Shown here in pieces: positions 1,260 through 37,091 of a stretch of DNA of 64,000 nucleotides; the first letter of the stretch is position 1, and the number at the start of each line of letters is the position of its first letter. The DNA comes from Oligoflexia bacterium (lineage in GTDB: Bacteria; Bdellovibrionota; UBA1018): contig CAIUGE010000037.1 of assembly GCA_903898645.1 (NCBI GenBank), forward strand, positions 2,055-66,054, in the 5' to 3' direction. Made by a program: the position numbers and the translations under genes. The notes under the pieces are model-generated. The model searched no databases. It was not told the DNA's origin and saw nothing but the letters and a program-made list of their open reading frames with translations.

Positions 1260-1424
1260 TCATTTTCTCTTCGCTTTCTTGGGGGTGAGTGAAAGCTTGC
1301 CAAAGGCCTTCTGGATTTTCATTTTCTCTCGATGCACACGTTCTTGGCGGCGAATTTCTTGAGGAAAAAATTTCATTGCTTTTTCGATTTCTCGAAGCTT
1401 TGCTTTGTGTTCTGCGTCAGTCAT
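1260..1424 (-). CDS. Small basic/charged 54-aa protein (MTDAEHKAKLREIEKAMKFF...KKAKRK). Its start overlaps the stop of the upstream P-loop gene by 4 nt (ATGA)
   Basis: I translated this manually; it is below the ORF-track cutoff. The 4-nt overlap suggests translational coupling with the 1421..2044 ORF. No homology was recognised. Confidence 0.35.
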   Translation of the reverse strand: MTDAEHKAKLREIEKAMKFFPQEIRRQERVHREKMKIQKAFGKLSLTPKKAKRK

Positions 1425-2044
1425 GGAATTTCTGCCTTTAAAAAAGATGAAACAAATTCTTGCTGTTTGTGCGGGCTAAGATTTTCGAAATCGGCATTAT
1501 TTTGAATAGATTGAGGTTTTGTTCCAGAGTTATCAAAAATATACCAGTTCGTACAAAGAGGTCTATAAAGAGTCCAGAAATTATCAAAGCAACGAGGGTG
1601 ACGACGATGAACTGCTTCAGCTGGAATTGAATGCCCGCCTAGCTGCACTCGGTTCTTGATTCGTTGTAGATTTTTTTTAATGGAACTGAGGTACAGGAAA
1701 TAGATCGTCACTTGGTACCCTTGGTCGGTAGCGTTTTTGAGGATTTTCGTCCACGTTCTGCCGGATAACGTGGATTCAAAGGCAAAACTGTCTCCTCGGG
1801 CAATTATCGATTGCACTTTCTGAATGAGTATTCTTCCAGCATAAAATGATGCTTCTTCAGAGCTAAGAAGGCCTATGCCAGATGCAATAATGTTTGGGTT
1901 AAGGTAGGCGTTCTTACCAAGTTTTTTCATGAGGTACGTATTGGCGAAGGACGTTTTTCCGCTGCCGTTGGGGCCAGCTACAATTTCAATAACTTTACTG
2001 GTAACGAGAGAGGGAGGGCTTAGGGCTTCTAGTTTAATGTCCAA
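1421..2044 (-). CDS. P-loop NTPase/kinase-like protein of the zeta-toxin / AAA_33 type
   Basis: N-terminal Walker A motif AGPNGSGKTS is present. It is about 200 aa long with a hhhhD-like Walker B (DSFAFES). Family assignment is by eye only. Confidence 0.4.
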   Translation of the reverse strand: MDIKLEALSPPSLVTSKVIEIVAGPNGSGKTSFANTYLMKKLGKNAYLNPNIIASGIGLLSSEEASFYAGRILIQKVQSIIARGDSFAFESTLSGRTWTKILKNATDQGYQVTIYFLYLSSIKKNLQRIKNRVQLGGHSIPAEAVHRRHPRCFDNFWTLYRPLCTNWYIFDNSGTKPQSIQNNADFENLSPHKQQEFVSSFLKAEIP

Positions 2045-28849: not shown

Positions 28850-29192
28850 TGCGTGGAAAAATTATCTTGCACGCACCTCTTTTGTGGCATAGAGTGTGTG
28901 GCTATAAGGGGCTGCTGTCGGGCTGGGCGCAATAGACGCATCTTGCTTTGAGTTAGGCGCCCTTCCAGTATTGTTCATCAATTTTACATCGAGAAATTAT
29001 GGGATGGATCGTGGTAATGCAAGTTTTAAGTCGGTCCTTATGAATCAAGGACAAGTAAGAAAAAGTGCGTCAAAAAAAGATCCTCGTGTGCCTTTTAAGA
29101 AAGAGTTTCATGGGGAGAGGCAGAAAACGGTAGTTCCTCACTTCGAGGATGAGCAGATCGCCGAAAGTACTGAGCAAAAAGGGGGCCATTGC

Positions 29193-30440
29193 ATGCATTT
29201 GCGTGAGTTAAAAGAAAAAAAGATTGGCAATTTAGTTGAAATGGGTAAGGAGCTTGGCATTGAGAATGCTGGGGGGATGCGTAAGCAGGACCTTATCTTT
29301 GCTGTTTTGCAGATGAAGGCAGAAAAAGACGAGCATATCTATGCAGATGGTGTGCTGGAGTGTTTGCCAGACGGATTTGGATTTTTGCGTGCTCCCGACT
29401 ATAATTATTTGCCAGGCCCTGATGATGTCTACGTTTCACCATCGCAGATTCGTCGGTTTGGGTTGCGCACTGGTGATACAGTGAGTGGCTCTGTTCGGGC
29501 ACCTAAGGAAGGTGAGAGGTATTTTGCTCTTTTGAAAGTTGAGCAGGTGAATTTTCAGACTCCTGAGATGAATGCTGAGAAAGTTCTTTTCGATAATCTG
29601 ACGCCACTTTATCCGAATCAGCGCATTGTCCTTGAGCATCAGCCGACAAATTATAGTACCCGTATTATTGATATGATGGTGCCATTGGGGAAGGGTCAGC
29701 GTTGCTTGATTGTTGCGCCTCCTCGTGCTGGGAAGACTGTACTTTTGCAGGATATTGCAAATGCTATCACCCAGAACAATCCTGAAATTAAGCTCATTGT
29801 GTTGCTGATTGATGAACGGCCGGAAGAAGTGACGGATATGCAACGGTCTGTTAAGGGCGAAGTTGTCAGCTCAACATTTGATGAGCAAGCGTCACGCCAT
29901 GTGCAGGTAGCTGAGATGGTCATTGAGAAGGCGAAGCGTCTTGTTGAGAATAAGTACGATGTTGTGATTCTTCTTGATTCTGTGACACGGTTAGCCCGCG
30001 CCTACAATTCTGTCGTGCCTCCGTCTGGGAAGATTTTGTCTGGTGGTGTGGATGCGAATGCTCTGCATAAGCCAAAGAAATTCTTTGGCGCAGCTCGTAA
30101 TATTGAAGAGGGTGGGTCTTTAACTATTATTGCAACGGCTTTGATTGATACTGGTTCACGCATGGACGAGGTCATTTTTGAAGAGTTCAAGAGCACTGGT
30201 AATTCTGAAATCCATCTGGATCGCAAGCTGATGGAGAAGAGACTCTTTCCATGCTTGGATATCAATAAGTCAGCAACCCGCAAAGAAGAGCTTTTGTTGC
30301 CAAAGGATATCTTGAATCGTTTGTGGATCCTTCGTAAGGTACTGCATCCTATGAATACGGTTGATGCAATGGAGTTCTTGCTGGAGAAAGTCGCTCATAC
30401 AAAGACAAACGATGAGTTTGTTAAAAATATGAGTGGCTAG
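29193..30440 (+). CDS. rho: Transcription termination factor Rho
   Basis: Canonical N-terminus [41 protein letters not shown] fold and RecA-like ATPase (GKT, etc.) are present. The frame is open for 74 codons further upstream, from 28971. Confidence 0.9.
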
Positions 30441-30492
30441 ACGGGCCCAGATCTGATAATAGTTCCCTTTTATTGTACGGAGTAATAAAATT

Positions 30493-30693
30493 ATGAAGCA
30501 GGGTGTTCATCCTCAGTATCATGAGACTACGGTGAAGTGTGCATGCGGTACCATCATTGAGACGCGCGCGACCAAAGAAAACATTAAAGTTGAAATTTGT
30601 TCAACTTGCCATCCTTTCTATACTGGTAAAGAAAAGCTTTTGGATACGGAAGGCCGTGTTGAGCGTTTCTTGAACAAGTATAAGAAAAAGTAA
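30493..30693 (+). CDS. rpmE: 50S ribosomal protein L31
   Basis: [19 protein letters not shown]...[11 protein letters not shown]. Confidence 0.9.
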
Positions 30694-30708
30694 GGCTTTT
30701 GTGCCTGC

Positions 30709-31776
30709 ATGTTTGATCAACTAGAAGCTGTTGTCGTTCGATTCCACGAAATTGAAGGCAGGCTTGCAGATCCTGCATGCGCCAAGAACGCAGAGGCATT
30801 TCGCAAGCTCTCGCAGGAGCATTCTTCTTTACAGGAGATTGTGCGGGAGTATGCAATGTACAAGGACTGTGTACGTGAATTGGAAGATAATCGTCTTTTA
30901 AGTCATGATACCGAGTTTTCGCAAATGGCATGGGATGAGATTCATCGTTTAGAGCCACTTGTTGATGCTTCTCGTCAGCGCCTACGTATTTTGCTTTTGC
31001 CAGAAGATCCACGCGATGCAAAAAATGTTGTTTTTGAGGTTCGTGCTGGGGCTGGAGGCGATGAGGCAGCTCTTTTTGTTGGAGAGATCTTCCGTTTATA
31101 CCAAAAATATGCTGAACGGCAGAACTGGAAAGTTACTGTGCTGTCGGCGCAGGTCACTGGATTAGGTGGATTTCGTGAAATCATTGCTGAGATTGAAGGG
31201 CAGAACGTCTTCAGTCGCCTCAAATGGGAGGCGGGTGTTCACCGAGTGCAACGTGTGCCTGAAACTGAATCTCAGGGTCGAGTCCATACATCAACAGTCA
31301 CTGTTGCAGTGATGCCTGAGGCAAGTGAGATGGATGTTGTTATTCAGCCAACTGACCTCCGTATTGATGTTTATCGATCGGGTGGTGCAGGAGGGCAGGG
31401 TGTGAATACGACAGATTCTGCAGTGCGTATTACCCATTTACCAACAAATCTAGTTGTTGTTTGTCAAGATGAGCGTTCTCAGATTAAGAATAAAGATAAA
31501 GCTATGAAGATTCTACGTTCGAGGCTTCTGGAAGCTGAGCGTGACCGATTTGAGAAGTCTCAATGTGCTGAAAGACGAAGTATGGTTGGGACTGGGGATC
31601 GGAGCGAGCGAATTCGTACATATAACTTTCCTCAGGGCAGACTCACAGACCATAGAATTAATGTAACGTTGTACCAACTATCTGCTGTGATGGAAGGTCA
31701 GATTGATGAAATTGTTAGCGGCCTTATTTCTCACTATCAGATGGAGGCATTGAGGCAGCAAGGTATTGTGGGATGA
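30709..31776 (+). CDS. prfA: Peptide chain release factor 1
   Basis: GGQ motif (SGGAGGQGVNTTDSAVRITHLPT) and the PxT region are present. Confidence 0.9.
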   Translation: MFDQLEAVVVRFHEIEGRLADPACAKNAEAFRKLSQEHSSLQEIVREYAMYKDCVRELEDNRLLSHDTEFSQMAWDEIHRLEPLVDASRQRLRILLLPEDPRDAKNVVFEVRAGAGGDEAALFVGEIFRLYQKYAERQNWKVTVLSAQVTGLGGFREIIAEIEGQNVFSRLKWEAGVHRVQRVPETESQGRVHTSTVTVAVMPEASEMDVVIQPTDLRIDVYRSGGAGGQGVNTTDSAVRITHLPTNLVVVCQDERSQIKNKDKAMKILRSRLLEAERDRFEKSQCAERRSMVGTGDRSERIRTYNFPQGRLTDHRINVTLYQLSAVMEGQIDEIVSGLISHYQMEALRQQGIVG

Positions 31777-32387
31777 ATCCCTATGTGACAGGTGAGGCGG
31801 CTTTTTACGGACGGATCTTTCATGTAACGCCCGATGTATTGATTCCTCGATTTGAAACGGAAGTTCTGGTGCAGGAATTACTGCGACGTACCCAAAAAGG
31901 TCGTGTGCTTGAAATAGGGACAGGCTCAGGGAATATTGCTATAACATTGGCCTGCGAATGCCCAGAGATGGAAATTGTGACGGTGGATTGCAGTGGTCCT
32001 GCTTTAGCTGTTGCGCGGTTGAATTGGGAGCGTCTTGGGGGTGGTTCTCGTGTGCAGTTCGTAGAAAGCGATGCGCTTTTTGATGCTGTCCAGGGTGAGT
32101 TTGATGTTTTTGTTTCTAATCCCCCGTATCTTTGCAATGTGCCTGAGGAAGTTGACAGTAATGTGTGTCTTTATGAGCCACATATTGCACTGTTCCCGCC
32201 TGATCCGCTGTATTTTTACCGTCTTTTTGCAAAGCAGGCGTCTGCCAGACTGATTGCCTTGGAGGTGCCGCATGAGCGAGCTTATAAGATCCAGGGTCTT
32301 TTTAGTGCTTGGCAAACGGAGTTGATCAATGATCTTACTGGGCGACCAAGAGTCTTAATGGGGGGTGTTTCGTATGGACTGCATTGA
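31773..32387 (+). CDS. prmC: Release-factor glutamine N5-methyltransferase (HemK/PrmC); short form
   Basis: NPPY motif and SAM-binding LEIGTGSG are present. It is translationally coupled to prfA. Confidence 0.75.
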   Translation: MNPYVTGEAAFYGRIFHVTPDVLIPRFETEVLVQELLRRTQKGRVLEIGTGSGNIAITLACECPEMEIVTVDCSGPALAVARLNWERLGGGSRVQFVESDALFDAVQGEFDVFVSNPPYLCNVPEEVDSNVCLYEPHIALFPPDPLYFYRLFAKQASARLIALEVPHERAYKIQGLFSAWQTELINDLTGRPRVLMGGVSYGLH

Positions 32388-33624
32388 TGTGTATGGTGGC
32401 AGGCCACTTGAAGGTGATGTGATACTGAGTGGCGCAAAGAACGCGGCTTTGCCTCTGCTCATTGCATCTTTGTTAACGGATGCAGTTATTGAGCTCAAGC
32501 ATGTTCCTGATCTGAAAGATATTCGAACAACTTTAGCGCTTTTGCAGCATCTTGGGGTGGAAATTGAGCATCGCGCTGGCGCCTACCGCTTGTCTGCTGC
32601 AAATGTTGCCTGCTTTGAGGCGCCTTATGAGCTCGTCAGTACAATGCGTGCATCGGTTCTTGTGCTGGGCCCACTTTTAGCGAGATTCGGTCAGGTGAAG
32701 GTGAGCTTGCCTGGGGGCTGCGCCATTGGCGCACGCCCGATTCAGTACCACCTGATGGGTCTTGAAAAGCTTGGAGCTGAGATCTGGCTTGAAAATGGCT
32801 ATGTTATCGCAAAAGCAAATCGCCTGAAGGGCACAACCATTCGATTTGATTTTCCAAGTGTTGGGGCAACGGAAAATATTCTTATGGCAGCGGTTTTAGC
32901 GGAAGGTGAAACTGTTTTAGAAAACTGTGCTTGTGAGCCCGAGATTGTAGATTTGGCCAATTTGCTCATCAAGATGGGGGCATATATTACAGGTGCCGGT
33001 ACCTCAACTATCCTTATCCGGGGCGTTACTAAATTACATGAGGCCACGCACGCTGTTATGGGTGACCGTATTGAGGCGGGTACTTTTGCGCTTGCTGTGT
33101 GTGGTACGGGTGGAGCTATTCGCGTGATGGGGATTGCGCCTGAAGCTTTGGGGACGCTTTTAGCTGTCTGTGAGCAGTGTGGTGCCCAGGTCGAGCGTTT
33201 TGAGGATGGTTTTGGCATGAAGGCTACAGAACGTATGCGGGCAGCAAGTATTACAACTGAGCCTTACCCTGGTTTTCCGACTGATATGCAGGCTCAATTT
33301 ATGGCCCTGATGAGTGTAGCTGGAGGTCGATCCTATATTACGGAGACTATTTTTGAGAATCGTTTTATGCACTGTTCCGAGCTCGCCCGATTGGGTGCAG
33401 ATATTAGTGTTGGAGGCGGTATTGCGACCGTACGGGGTGTGCCAGCTTTGTCAGGTGCTGAGGTGATGGCGACAGACCTCCGAGCAAGTGCGAGCTTGAT
33501 TCTTGGGGGGCTCTTTGCACATGGCTGCACGCGTGTGAACCGCATCTACCATCTGGATCGTGGCTATGAACGTATTGAGGAGAAGTTTCGTGCATTGGGA
33601 GCGCGTATTGAACGACGGATATAG
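32374..33624 (+). CDS. murA: UDP-N-acetylglucosamine 1-carboxyvinyltransferase
   Basis: MDCIDVYGG...SGAKNAALP N-terminus is present. The catalytic region is conserved. Confidence 0.9.
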   Translation: MDCIDVYGGRPLEGDVILSGAKNAALPLLIASLLTDAVIELKHVPDLKDIRTTLALLQHLGVEIEHRAGAYRLSAANVACFEAPYELVSTMRASVLVLGPLLARFGQVKVSLPGGCAIGARPIQYHLMGLEKLGAEIWLENGYVIAKANRLKGTTIRFDFPSVGATENILMAAVLAEGETVLENCACEPEIVDLANLLIKMGAYITGAGTSTILIRGVTKLHEATHAVMGDRIEAGTFALAVCGTGGAIRVMGIAPEALGTLLAVCEQCGAQVERFEDGFGMKATERMRAASITTEPYPGFPTDMQAQFMALMSVAGGRSYITETIFENRFMHCSELARLGADISVGGGIATVRGVPALSGAEVMATDLRASASLILGGLFAHGCTRVNRIYHLDRGYERIEEKFRALGARIERRI

Positions 33625-33756
33625 TGCGCAGCAAAACAAAGATACAAATTACATGAGGAAGAAAACGAAATAGAGTCAGTATGCCGCCATTATTATTACC
33701 TAGCGGCTGTAGGTATTATTTATCAACGTACGAGAGAATAGGCATGGCTCGCCATG

Positions 33757-34113
33757 TTATTTTGCTGCATCGTCTACAACGGATCCCTTGCGGAATAGAC
33801 TCGCTTTTTTACTCGCTGATTCAGCATCCTGGTACATGTGTGCGCCATGTTTTTTGCAAGCCTCAGCGCGTGTCTCTTCAAAACCTGCAACCAGATGGAT
33901 GAGAGGGTCGGCTTCTTGGCGCAATTCACCGTTAATAGGTGTCTGGGCAGAGATGATGGGGGTTATTCCTAGCTCATTTTGTTTAATATTCTCTTGTTGC
34001 TGCGTTTTTTTTTCCTTTTTTGGACGATGCTCCTCTACATTCGTTTTGTCGTTTGCAGTACTTGTCAGAGGCGTGATGAACTTCATGAGAGCTGAGCCAA
34101 TTTGAGAGATCAT
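33757..34113 (-). CDS. Hypothetical charged protein (118 aa)
   Basis: ORF lies in the otherwise empty 600-nt murA to AONS intergenic region. Confidence 0.25.
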   Translation of the reverse strand: MISQIGSALMKFITPLTSTANDKTNVEEHRPKKEKKTQQQENIKQNELGITPIISAQTPINGELRQEADPLIHLVAGFEETRAEACKKHGAHMYQDAESASKKASLFRKGSVVDDAAK

Positions 34114-34223
34114 GAATATCTATCGACGCATTGCGTTTATTTGATAAATGCCGTATCATATTTGACCCTGTGGCTTGATAAATGCTAGAGTCCACCAGGT
34201 ACTTCGGTAGAAAGGGGACCAGT

Positions 34224-35441
34224 ATGCTGTCTCGTAAGGATATTTTTACAAAATGTAGCGCTTTTGACGATGCAAAGAAAGTTATCGCAGTTGGTTTATA
34301 TCCTTTTTTCCGACCCATAGAATCAACGCTTGGTTCTAGTGTCGTGACAGCGGGTAGGCGCCGCGTGATGATTGGTTCGAATAATTACCTAGGGCTGACG
34401 CACCACCCCAGGGTCCAAGAAGCATCACGCAAAGCAATTGACAAGTTTGGAACTGGGTGCACAGGTTCTCGGTTTTTGAACGGAAATCTTGTTCTCCATG
34501 AGGAGCTTGAGGAGCGCTTAGCGCATTTTGTCGGCAAAGAGGCGTGCCTGGTTTTTAATTCTGGGTTTCTTGCAAATCAGGGCGCTATATCAACGCTTAT
34601 TGGGCGTCATGATGTGATCTACAGCGATCGGGAAAATCACGCATCTATTTTAGAGGGTACAAAGGTAGCATTAGGAGAGACTGTTAAGTTTCGTCATAAT
34701 GACATGCGTGACCTTGAACGGGTGTTGAAGCTGACACGTGAAAAATATGAAGGTGCGATGATTATCGCAGATGGCGTTTTTTCTATGTCCGGGGATATTT
34801 TTCCTATTCCTGAAGCCTTGGCCTTAGCGCGTCAGTATGGCGCAAGACTCTATATTGATGATGCACATGCTTTGGGCGTCTTGGGTGCACAGGGGCAAGG
34901 AACAGAGAATCATTTTGGTCTGTCAGATGTTGATGTTATTGTAGGCACATTCTCAAAATCGTTTGCGTCTTTGGGCGGGTTTATGGCGGCATCCAAGGAT
35001 GTTATTCATTATGTGAAGCATAAGTGTAGGCCATTTATTTTTAGTGCAGCAATGCCGCCTGCAGCTTTAGGTGCCGTGCTTGAGTGTTTGACAATTGTTC
35101 GTGAGGAGCCAGAGCATTTAGAACGTCTTTGGCAGAATGCGCGGTTTATGAGTCATGAGTTGAAGCTTTTAGGATACAACACGCTTGGAAGTACAACGCC
35201 GATTATCCCTCTTATTATTGGTGAAGATATGCAAGCATTCACCTTCACGCAGAAACTTTATGAGCATGGTATTTTTGCAACACCTGTCATTAGTCCTGCG
35301 GTGCCAGAGGGGCATGCATTGCTGAGGACAAGTTACATGGCGTCTCATACGATGGATGATCTCTGCTATGTTCTGGATGTTTTAAAAAAACTTGGCACGC
35401 TCTTTCGCATTACTGAGCAGGAAAATCGAGCCACGCTCTAA
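34224..35441 (+). CDS. PLP-dependent alpha-oxoamine synthase family enzyme (8-amino-7-oxononanoate synthase / serine palmitoyltransferase / 2-amino-3-ketobutyrate CoA ligase type)
   Basis: GTFSKSF with the PLP lysine is present. The class-II aminotransferase fold pattern is present. Confidence 0.8.
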   Translation: MLSRKDIFTKCSAFDDAKKVIAVGLYPFFRPIESTLGSSVVTAGRRRVMIGSNNYLGLTHHPRVQEASRKAIDKFGTGCTGSRFLNGNLVLHEELEERLAHFVGKEACLVFNSGFLANQGAISTLIGRHDVIYSDRENHASILEGTKVALGETVKFRHNDMRDLERVLKLTREKYEGAMIIADGVFSMSGDIFPIPEALALARQYGARLYIDDAHALGVLGAQGQGTENHFGLSDVDVIVGTFSKSFASLGGFMAASKDVIHYVKHKCRPFIFSAAMPPAALGAVLECLTIVREEPEHLERLWQNARFMSHELKLLGYNTLGSTTPIIPLIIGEDMQAFTFTQKLYEHGIFATPVISPAVPEGHALLRTSYMASHTMDDLCYVLDVLKKLGTLFRITEQENRATL

Positions 35442-35449
35442 GGAGTATT

Positions 35450-36601
35450 ATGATTGAAATACGGAAGGTGCAGGCGAAGTCTGACTGGAAGCATTTTTTT
35501 GCAGTTCCTTTGAAAATTTACAAAGACGATCTTTTCTATGTGCCACCACTCCAGATTGCACAGACTGCAATTTTTGATAAAAAGAATCCTTTTTTCGAGC
35601 ATGCGAGTCTTGAGGCTTTTGTTGCTTTTCGAGGGAAGCAGGCGGTCGGGCGTATTGTCTGTATTATCGATGAGGATTACTGCTCTCTTCTTGGAGAGAA
35701 GGCAGCTTTTTTTGGCTTTTTTGAAGCAATGGATGAAGTTTCGGCGCAAGCGCTTTTAGCTCATGCAATGACATGGACGAAGGAGCATGGGCTGGAAGTG
35801 CTTCGTGGGCCGATGAACCCAAGTATCAACCATGAGTGTGGTCTTTTGATTAAAGGGTTTCAGTACCGGCCATTTGTGATGATGCCTTATAATAAGCCGC
35901 AGTATGGTGACTATCTGGAGCAGGCAGGTTTTGTTAAAATTCAGGATCTCTTTGCCTACCACCTGTCAGCAGCAACGTCACAGATCTCCGAGCGTATGCT
36001 TCGGCATGCTGAGCGATTGCGGATGCGAGGGCGGTTTGTGTTTCGGCCACTCAATATGGCGGCGTTTGATAGTGAAGTTGATCTTTTGCTCGATATTTAT
36101 AATGATGCTTGGGAAAAAAATTGGGGTTTTGTCCCCATGCGTCCGGCAGAATTTCGCGCTATGGCAAAGGATATGAAACTTGTTGTAGATCCTGAGCTTT
36201 GCTTGATTGCTGAGGTCGAGGGCAAGGCTGTTGCATTTGCGCTGGCACTGCCTGACATCAATCAGGCGCTTGTGCATGTGAAAGAAGGGCGGCTCACGCC
36301 TTTGAATCTTTTGAAGCTTTTTTGGTATCTTAAGGGGCCAGCTGCAAAAAGAACAATAACGCAGTTTCGTGTCATTACTTTAGGCGTAAGAAAAACGTAC
36401 CAGGAAAGCGGCATTGGTCCTCTTATGTATACTGAGTTTTGGAGACGGGGCGTTGCCAAAGGTTTATGTGAAGCTGAAGCATCATGGATTTTAGAAAACA
36501 ATGTGCCTATGAATACAGCATTGGAGGCACTTGGGGCTGAAAAGACGAAAGTTTATCGCATTTATGAGCGAAAGGTAACGAGTGCGGATACTGGGCATTG
36601 A
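35450..36601 (+). CDS. GNAT-fold acyltransferase-like protein, two-lobed (383 aa)
   Basis: The start is 9 nt after the AONS stop. No precise family was recognised. Confidence 0.45.
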   Translation: MIEIRKVQAKSDWKHFFAVPLKIYKDDLFYVPPLQIAQTAIFDKKNPFFEHASLEAFVAFRGKQAVGRIVCIIDEDYCSLLGEKAAFFGFFEAMDEVSAQALLAHAMTWTKEHGLEVLRGPMNPSINHECGLLIKGFQYRPFVMMPYNKPQYGDYLEQAGFVKIQDLFAYHLSAATSQISERMLRHAERLRMRGRFVFRPLNMAAFDSEVDLLLDIYNDAWEKNWGFVPMRPAEFRAMAKDMKLVVDPELCLIAEVEGKAVAFALALPDINQALVHVKEGRLTPLNLLKLFWYLKGPAAKRTITQFRVITLGVRKTYQESGIGPLMYTEFWRRGVAKGLCEAEASWILENNVPMNTALEALGAEKTKVYRIYERKVTSADTGH

Positions 36602-37091
36602 TCCTGGATCGTGGAAGACGGGCTATGGGCTGATTGAGAGTAAGGATTTTTCGGTTATTGCATGCGGGACCATTTGTTTGCCACGTACATCTCATGCACA
36701 GTCTTTAGGTGTGCTCTGGCGTGAACTTGAAAACGTTTTCTCTCAAAATAGACCCGACTGTGTTATTGTTGAGCGGATTTTTTATGGCAGAAGTATTGCC
36801 TCAGCGCTTGTCCTGGGGCAAGCTCGGGGAGTCGCCTTAGCGGCAGCAGGCTTTTGGCATTGTGATTGTCATGAATATACAGCATGTGAAGTGAAAGGTG
36901 CTGTTGCAGGGCATGGGCATGCGTCAAAAGAGGCAGTTGCCGCTGCAGTGCGGATGTATGCAAAATTTCAGGGAGAATTTGATACACTGGACGCATCTGA
37001 TGCGCTTGCTTTGGCTCTATGTCATATGCTCAAGCCTGCAAAAAAGAAAAAACGGCTCTCATTGGCAGAAAGTTTGGAGCACGTTTTATGA
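36582..37091 (+). CDS. ruvC: Holliday junction resolvase RuvC
   Basis: ILGIDPGS...GYG N-terminus and RNase H-like fold are present. Confidence 0.85.
   Translation: MRILGIDPGSWKTGYGLIESKDFSVIACGTICLPRTSHAQSLGVLWRELENVFSQNRPDCVIVERIFYGRSIASALVLGQARGVALAAAGFWHCDCHEYTACEVKGAVAGHGHASKEAVAAAVRMYAKFQGEFDTLDASDALALALCHMLKPAKKKKRLSLAESLEHVL

Follow-up and report, generated by a model that had tools for sequence, protein, structure and literature searches.

A probable serine palmitoyltransferase and bacterial ceramide synthase gene pair in a Bdellovibrionota-like bacterium

Results

The spt-bcerS gene pair

We use "the window" for the whole stretch of DNA analysed here, 64,000 nucleotides (64 kb) of contig CAIUGE010000037.1 (assembly GCA_903898645.1) from an Oligoflexia bacterium assigned to the Bdellovibrionota. 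Near its middle two genes lie side by side on the forward strand: spt (34224..35441), encoding a 405-aa alpha-oxoamine synthase (AONS) of the serine palmitoyltransferase (SPT) type, and bcerS (35450..36601), encoding a 383-aa tandem GNAT protein of the YghO/CC_1154 family. Both open reading frames (ORFs) had been described in an initial annotation of this DNA, and both are present. Several lines of evidence indicate, with a probability that we put at roughly 85%, that the pair encodes Spt and bCerS, the first two cytoplasmic enzymes of a bacterial ceramide pathway, in a Bdellovibrionota-like bacterium. The module itself is known; here it takes a two-gene form that is typical of one Bdellovibrionota lineage and is set within a string of housekeeping genes.

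The two genes nearly abut. Read from the sequence, the junction (35439..35452, forward strand) consists of the TAA stop codon of spt (35439-35441), an AAGGAG Shine-Dalgarno sequence (35440-45) that overlaps this stop, a 4-nt spacer, TATT, and the ATG of bcerS at 35450. The initial annotation placed the second gene 9 nt after the first; the adjacency stands, and the figure is the start position minus the stop position, with 8 intervening nucleotides. Such spacing makes translational coupling of bcerS to spt plausible.

We retain the spt start at 34224 in preference to that of the public gene call (P0121, 419 aa, start 34182), which is apparently 14 codons too early, because the N-termini of 12 of 12 close homologues fall within 3 residues of the 34224 equivalent, the 14-residue extension being found in none, and because 34224 is preceded, at a distance of 5 nt, by a purine-rich stretch resembling a Shine-Dalgarno sequence, AAAGGGGA.

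The first protein resembles serine palmitoyltransferases

Spt has the class I/II aminotransferase fold (PF00155, E 2.8e-51). Among NCBIfam models its best score was to NF047600 SerpalmtaseCFB (serine palmitoyltransferase of the Cytophaga-Flavobacterium-Bacteroides, or CFB, type) at 484 bits, with lower scores to a BioF/Kbl-related subfamily (406 bits), BioF (382), Kbl (365) and beta-proteobacterial SPT (359); all of these scores lie under the curated cutoffs of the respective models. The best solved structure was the SPT of Sphingobacterium multivorum (8guh/3a2b; 384 bits, E 7e-114 to about 1e-113, ~45% identity); scores to the Thermus BioF/Kbl, Sphingomonas SPT, E. coli Kbl and E. coli BioF structures were 323, 259, 250 and 214 bits, the last with 34% identity. 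The catalytic set is kept: the pyridoxal 5'-phosphate (PLP)-binding Lys245 together with His139, Asp212 and His215 align with K244, H138, D210 and H213 of the S. multivorum enzyme, and Arg368 aligns with the Arg of its LIRFS motif.

The closest homologues of Spt are publicly named "8-amino-7-oxononanoate synthase", and the gene could accordingly be read as a housekeeping BioF or Kbl, serving biotin synthesis or threonine catabolism, with an unrelated acetyltransferase downstream. The BioF score lies near the cutoff of that model (TIGR00858, 382 vs 426 bits), and identity to the Thermus BioF/Kbl is 42%. Nevertheless, Spt falls under the cutoffs for BioF and for Kbl (NF005394/TIGR01822, 365 vs 460 and 295 vs 493 bits), and an SPT model scores best. 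Moreover, no bioA, bioB, bioC, bioD or tdh was found among the scanned ORFs of at least 150 aa in the window, which agrees with the initial annotation's remark that biotin genes were lacking nearby.

Phylogenetic placement, a check that the initial annotation had suggested, was made with a neighbour-joining tree of 69 AONS genes from loci containing a bCerS-like GNAT gene (nearly all of them adjacent to it) and five references: E. coli BL21 Spt, BioF and Kbl, S. multivorum SPT and Thermus BioF/Kbl. Spt grouped with proteins from Bdellovibrionota metagenome-assembled genomes (MAGs) in 100 of 100 bootstraps, and this clade was nested in a large GNAT-linked clade that includes S. multivorum SPT; BioF, Kbl and the Thermus enzyme lay outside the latter in 59-70 of 100 bootstraps. 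Together with the scores against SPT models and structures and the absence of bio genes from the scanned ORFs, the tree bears out the earlier preference for a sphingolipid-type pathway rather than bioF.

A different possibility is that the same two-enzyme logic is applied to another amino acid: cysteate would yield capnine and sulfonolipids, and alanine or glycine would yield 1-deoxy-type bases, the GNAT protein N-acylating whichever base is formed. The amino-acid specificity of Spt is not readable from sequence with the methods used. Cysteate-C-fatty acyltransferases, which are closely related to the AONS, also match Spt (28eh, E 2e-68; Alistipes SulA 7u7h, E 5e-71), and a GNAT-AONS-epimerase cluster also occurs in the Cyclobacteriaceae and Cytophagia, groups that make sulfonolipids. 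However, SPT structures outscore those of the cysteate acyltransferases (384 vs 234-243 bits), the best NCBIfam model is an SPT model, no cysteate synthase was found in the window, and the characterised enzyme of the Bdellovibrio group, from Bacteriovorax stolpii, is an SPT in an organism with serine-derived sphingophosphonolipids (PMC6148460). We therefore regard a substrate other than serine as distinctly improbable.

The second protein is a tandem GNAT homologous to bacterial ceramide synthase

Domain models say little about bCerS. Pfam gave a weak Acetyltransf_1 match in the C-terminal half (residues 213-353, 22.5 bits vs a cutoff of 20.7), no NCBIfam model was matched, and a sequence search of the PDB returned no match at E <= 1. 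Structure prediction was more informative. The AlphaFold2 model, made with 40 homologues, has a mean pLDDT of 87.6 and a pTM of 0.86, and its top Foldseek matches are all tandem GNATs (2wpw, 5kf1, 7q3a and MshD 1ozp; E 1e-9 to 4e-13). The description "two-lobed GNAT" in the initial annotation is therefore correct.

The same annotation called this acyltransferase uncharacterised, and here the literature has moved on. BLASTP aligns bCerS end to end with E. coli BL21 YghO (37% identity over 381 of 383 aa, E 4e-80). The BL21 yghO gene (ECD_02850) is reported, under the name aca, as an orthologue of Caulobacter CC_1154, with 44% identity, E 1e-107 and 98% coverage (PMC9386255, Supplementary Table 2). 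CC_1154 is CCNA_01212, the N-acyltransferase CerS or bCerS, without which, on genetic evidence, (dihydro)ceramide is not formed (PMC11324152, PMC9393093, PMC11087976).

The family is large and well conserved along its length. There are at least 4540 homologues, with 40-55% identity across phyla. When the window protein and YghO were aligned with ten further homologues taken from diverse phyla, the 12 sequences proved colinear, and 40 columns of the alignment were invariant. The family is marked by the signatures W221-x2-NWGFxP229, LPDxN271 (LPD/N-x-N in the alignment) and E343-x-SWxLExN351. A loop resembling the acyl-CoA motif A, of the form Q-x-x-G-x-G (QESGIG, 318-323), points to the C-terminal lobe, where it sits, as the one that probably binds acyl-CoA.

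The highest mean Kyte-Doolittle value of bCerS over 19 residues is 1.55, and by this crude test it has no obvious signal peptide or transmembrane helix. Hydrophobic segments were found in neither Spt nor bCerS, in keeping with reports that both enzymes are soluble or peripheral.

AONS and GNAT genes are linked across phyla

To define the conservation of the pair we used one genome per GTDB species, which gave 80 GNAT loci, and added one MAG locus for a total of 81. These loci come from Bdellovibrionota, Myxococcota, Acidobacteriota, Bacteroidota, Gemmatimonadota, Zixibacteria, Calditrichota, Ignavibacteria, Cloacimonadota, Verrucomicrobia and other phyla. In 67 of the 81 loci the GNAT gene has an AONS gene on its own strand no more than 600 nt away, upstream in 38 and downstream in 29. 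In the remainder the AONS gene is on the opposite strand (1), farther away (3) or absent nearby (10, of which 3 are at contig ends).

Adjacency of this frequency, across phyla and in both gene orders, is unexpected for chance neighbours, and the GNAT protein is itself homologous to a ceramide synthase. Both observations speak against a BioF or Kbl that happens to precede an unrelated acetyltransferase. That identity, which we consider extremely unlikely, was rejected on the model scores, the tree placement, the lack of bio and tdh genes and the conserved linkage.

When the neighbouring ORFs of the 81 loci were clustered, 53 loci proved to have an NAD-dependent epimerase/dehydratase, 29 a PAP2_3 protein and 17 a DUF3047 protein. 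We take PAP2_3 to be a family whose members include head-group transferases resembling sphingomyelin synthase and IPC synthase. The epimerase has a homologue in the E. coli BL21 sphingolipid-like cluster (E 2e-24), and the literature equates this BL21 gene with CerR/CC_1164. The AONS-GNAT-epimerase neighbourhood is the published spt-bcerS-cerR module. These three genes are often clustered, and Cloacimonadota are reported to lack bCerS and CerR near spt (PMC11334938); consistent with that report, two Cloacimonadota GNAT loci in our survey have no AONS nearby.

Two variants of the arrangement were seen. A five-gene cluster, DUF3047 - NAD epimerase - PAP2_3 - GNAT (bCerS) - AONS (Spt), is conserved in Acidobacteriota loci (survey loci L012, L018, L019, L021, L022, L028-L030, L033, L035 and others; one is labelled Verrucomicrobiia). 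Because this cluster is conserved, DUF3047 may be a further component of the sphingolipid pathway. In myxobacterial loci (Myxococcus and Corallococcus; L048, L052, L061, L062, L069) the AONS match and the GNAT gene are separated by a gap of ~420-460 nt, and PAP2_3 is found upstream on the opposite strand; the gap is also present in two delta-proteobacterial MAGs (L044, L076). It may hold a small gene or a C-terminal extension of the myxobacterial AONS.

Transcription and genomic setting

In the 110-nt gap upstream of spt a sigma-70-like promoter match lies at 34162..34191 on the forward strand (TTGACC-18-TAGAGT with a TG element, 9 of 12 consensus positions), although such matches are no commoner here than in shuffled sequence. 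A transcript beginning from this position would leave out the 34182 ATG, in agreement with the 34224 start. The GTG start of ruvC (36582..37091, forward strand) overlaps the end of bcerS by 20 nt, so ruvC is probably co-transcribed with it, and no convincing terminator was found between the two genes. Probably the pair has a promoter of its own, with transcription running on into ruvCAB. Rfam scans of the spt leader (E <= 1) and of the whole window at gathering thresholds returned nothing meaningful, and no riboswitch was found; at gathering threshold no Rfam family, tRNA included, was found in the 64 kb. At 45.4% and 45.7%, the two genes differ little in GC content from the window as a whole (46.7%), and nothing suggests recent acquisition of the pair.

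Upstream of the pair the window carries the dcw cluster with ftsA-ftsZ, recR and dnaX, and then yceG, rho, prfA, prmC and murA; downstream are ruvC, ruvA, ruvB and lpxC. Later in the window are a MATE pump, a class II aminoacyl-tRNA synthetase (Asp/Lys/Asn-type), an LptF/G permease, lepA and glycosyltransferases. The order prfA-prmC-murA-...-spt-bcerS-ruvCAB-lpxC is common to 11 Bdellovibrionota-like loci of the survey (L001-L010 and L039), which hold the closest homologues of both proteins (66-71% identity for the AONS, 49-54% for the GNAT). These nearest relatives are MAGs of Bdellovibrionales, Oligoflexia and Bacteriovoracia, with identical synteny, and the source is therefore a divergent bacterium of Bdellovibrionota-like affinity.

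Some details of the interval from 28971 to 34223 set the window apart from these relatives. It is more compact than L001 and the other Bdellovibrionota-like loci: rpmE and a DUF1385 gene are missing between rho and prfA, as is a HIT-family gene between murA and spt. Rho has 489 aa, against 415 in the relatives, owing to an N-terminal extension. PrmC (31773-32387, forward strand; 204 aa) matches positions 48-252 of the 253-position model TIGR03534 and lacks the N-terminal PrmC_N domain of the 289-308-aa orthologues in related MAGs; its start overlaps the prfA stop. A low-complexity ORF of 118 aa that diverges from spt (33757-34113, reverse strand) has no Pfam match and weakly resembles its positional counterpart in a Bdellovibrio sp. 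MAG (L001:7962-8447; 24% identity, E 4e-8). It is probably a real, lineage-specific small protein.

Two ORFs elsewhere in the window carry domains of note. A 403-aa protein (47040-48251, reverse strand) has an N-terminal zf-MYND domain (PF01753, E 4e-7), a zinc finger that is largely eukaryotic and unusual in bacteria. A 207-aa ORF just upstream of the dcw/mur cluster (1421-2044, reverse strand) has a weak Zeta-toxin domain match (PF06414, E 1e-7).

Discussion

Several observations weigh against assigning the pair to a ceramide pathway. Spt scores under the curated NCBIfam cutoff for every SPT model, including NF047600 (484 vs 640 bits); that model takes its name from the CFB group, and its calibration may not extend to Bdellovibrionota sequences. 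The Thermus BioF/Kbl, whose 42% identity to Spt nearly equals the 45% of S. multivorum SPT, is a promiscuous enzyme, and bootstrap support for placing it, BioF and Kbl outside the GNAT-linked clade is moderate. The link to Caulobacter bCerS runs through YghO and a published table rather than a direct alignment to CC_1154, and the literature we searched holds no enzymatic data for Bdellovibrionota homologues of bCerS. Finally, tblastn with the cluster epimerase found no CerR-type reductase in the 64-kb window (best E 2.7), and no PAP2_3 or other head-group gene was found there either. A complete pathway is therefore not demonstrated for this genome.

The missing reductase invites the question of whether the pathway stops at, or diverts from, 3-keto-ceramide, either because the organism has no CerR orthologue or because it uses a non-homologous reductase, so that the end product or the route would differ from that of Caulobacter. 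The scanned ORFs of the window gave no Pfam match to an epimerase or short-chain dehydrogenase/reductase, and the 11 Bdellovibrionota-like loci contain no epimerase, and no PAP2_3, within 7-10 kb of the pair. An epimerase is adjacent to the pair in most other phyla, and in Halobacteriovorax (L071) spt, bcerS and an epimerase gene are contiguous. Yet 64 kb is silent on the rest of the genome, and unlinked cerR genes have precedent: spt, bcerS and cerR are not clustered in Bacteroidota, and Cloacimonadota provide a second case (PMC11334938). A truncated or diverted pathway thus seems very unlikely to us.

The setting of the genes can be given a bolder interpretation. The pair is built into a core envelope and housekeeping string (murA ... 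spt-bcerS-ruvCAB-lpxC), bcerS overlaps ruvC, and no cerR, acyl carrier protein (ACP) or head-group gene is nearby. Conceivably, sphingolipid synthesis in this lineage is constitutive and co-regulated with that of lipid A and peptidoglycan, while keto-reduction is carried out by a non-orthologous enzyme or omitted altogether, giving a 3-keto-ceramide-derived lipid. We offer this as a speculation and think it unlikely.

If the pair does encode Spt and bCerS, a pathway can be proposed by analogy with characterised systems. In the first step the PLP-dependent Spt would condense L-serine with a long-chain acyl thioester to form 3-ketodihydrosphingosine. The thioester is most likely acyl-CoA, given that neither an ACP gene nor an acyl-ACP synthetase gene dedicated to this step lies next to the pair. 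In the second step the soluble or peripheral tandem GNAT, bCerS, would N-acylate this product with acyl-CoA, adding the second acyl chain and forming 3-keto-(dihydro)ceramide in the cytoplasm. A CerR-type, NAD(P)H-dependent reductase encoded outside the window would then reduce the 3-keto group, and a head-group enzyme would complete the sphingolipid. This order, with N-acylation before reduction, is that of the Caulobacter model (PMC11087976); another proposal puts reduction first, as in eukaryotes (PMC11324152). The present data establish the homology and fold of the proteins, their catalytic residues and the conserved linkage of the genes; the substrates, the sequence of the steps, the translational coupling and the operon structure are inferred.

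The initial annotation judged such a pair uncommon in a diderm with lipopolysaccharide, a view that is now outdated. The genes spt, bcerS and cerR are known from 9 phyla, and Spt-like genes from up to 40 (PMC11334938); the SPT of B. stolpii has been characterised biochemically, and it and the sphingophosphonolipids of that organism have been known for a long time (PMC6148460); and the pair occurs in many of the phyla in our survey. The present result fits the growing picture of widespread bacterial sphingolipids and opens no new mechanism. Its value lies first in annotation. Homologues that now carry the label "8-amino-7-oxononanoate synthase" in one case, and "GNAT family N-acetyltransferase", "RimI-like" or "hypothetical" in the other, are identified as spt and bcerS. 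bCerS itself was defined in 2021-2022. The source organism, along with a large set of Bdellovibrionota-like MAGs, becomes a probable sphingolipid producer, and the point worth following is where this lineage encodes its ceramide reductase and head-group enzymes.

Comparison with known systems

The reference system is that of Caulobacter crescentus, in which Spt is CCNA_01220/CC_1162, bCerS is CCNA_01212/CC_1154 and CerR is CCNA_01222/CC_1164. The window pair represents the same enzyme families for the first two steps. In Caulobacter, as predicted here, Spt and bCerS are soluble or peripheral cytoplasmic proteins with no transmembrane segments, and N-acylation is assigned to a GNAT-type enzyme that is not homologous to the eukaryotic ceramide synthases. 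The differences concern type and gene arrangement. The window Spt is of the Bacteroidota/delta-proteobacterial rather than the rhodobacterial type, and shares 34% identity with the Caulobacter-type Spt of E. coli BL21. The genes spt and bcerS abut in the window, whereas they are 8 genes apart in Caulobacter, and no AcpR, AasR, CerR, LptF2/G2 or head-group gene is adjacent to the window pair.

The sphingolipid-like cluster of E. coli BL21 (ECD_02850-02854) mirrors the Caulobacter locus. In RefSeq the BL21(DE3) region 2989282-2997066 (L082/L083) is annotated as encoding protein YghO, a fatty acyl-AMP ligase, an NAD-dependent epimerase, an ACP and Spt; paralogues of lptG and lptF come next. No named homologue is closer to the window GNAT than YghO, and the cluster also holds spt; however, yghO is divergently transcribed there, and the aasR, epi, acpR and lptFG paralogues of the cluster have no counterparts beside the window pair.

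The SPT of S. multivorum (3a2b, 8guh) is the best match to the window AONS in both sequence and structure, and the two proteins share the catalytic Lys, His, Asp, His and Arg. The SPT of Bacteriovorax (Bdellovibrio) stolpii (UniProt A7BFV8) has been assigned to the same CFB/delta subgroup of SPTs (PMC9386255).

The window GNAT shares its two-lobed fold with several tandem GNATs of known structure: the mycothiol synthase MshD (1ozp), a clavulanate-pathway protein (2wpw), a glucosamine N-acetyltransferase (5kf1) and MAB_4324 (7q3a). Foldseek probabilities are 1.0 and TM-scores about 0.55-0.59; sequence identities are 10-12%. These enzymes use acetyl-CoA and small polar acceptors, in contrast to the long-chain acyl-CoA and lipid amine used by bCerS. 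The eukaryotic ceramide synthases (Lag1/CerS, TLC domain) catalyse the same type of reaction, N-acylation of a sphingoid base, but they are polytopic membrane proteins of unrelated fold that act on sphinganine, after the reduction step, and the literature accordingly regards the two kinds of ceramide synthase as a case of convergent evolution.

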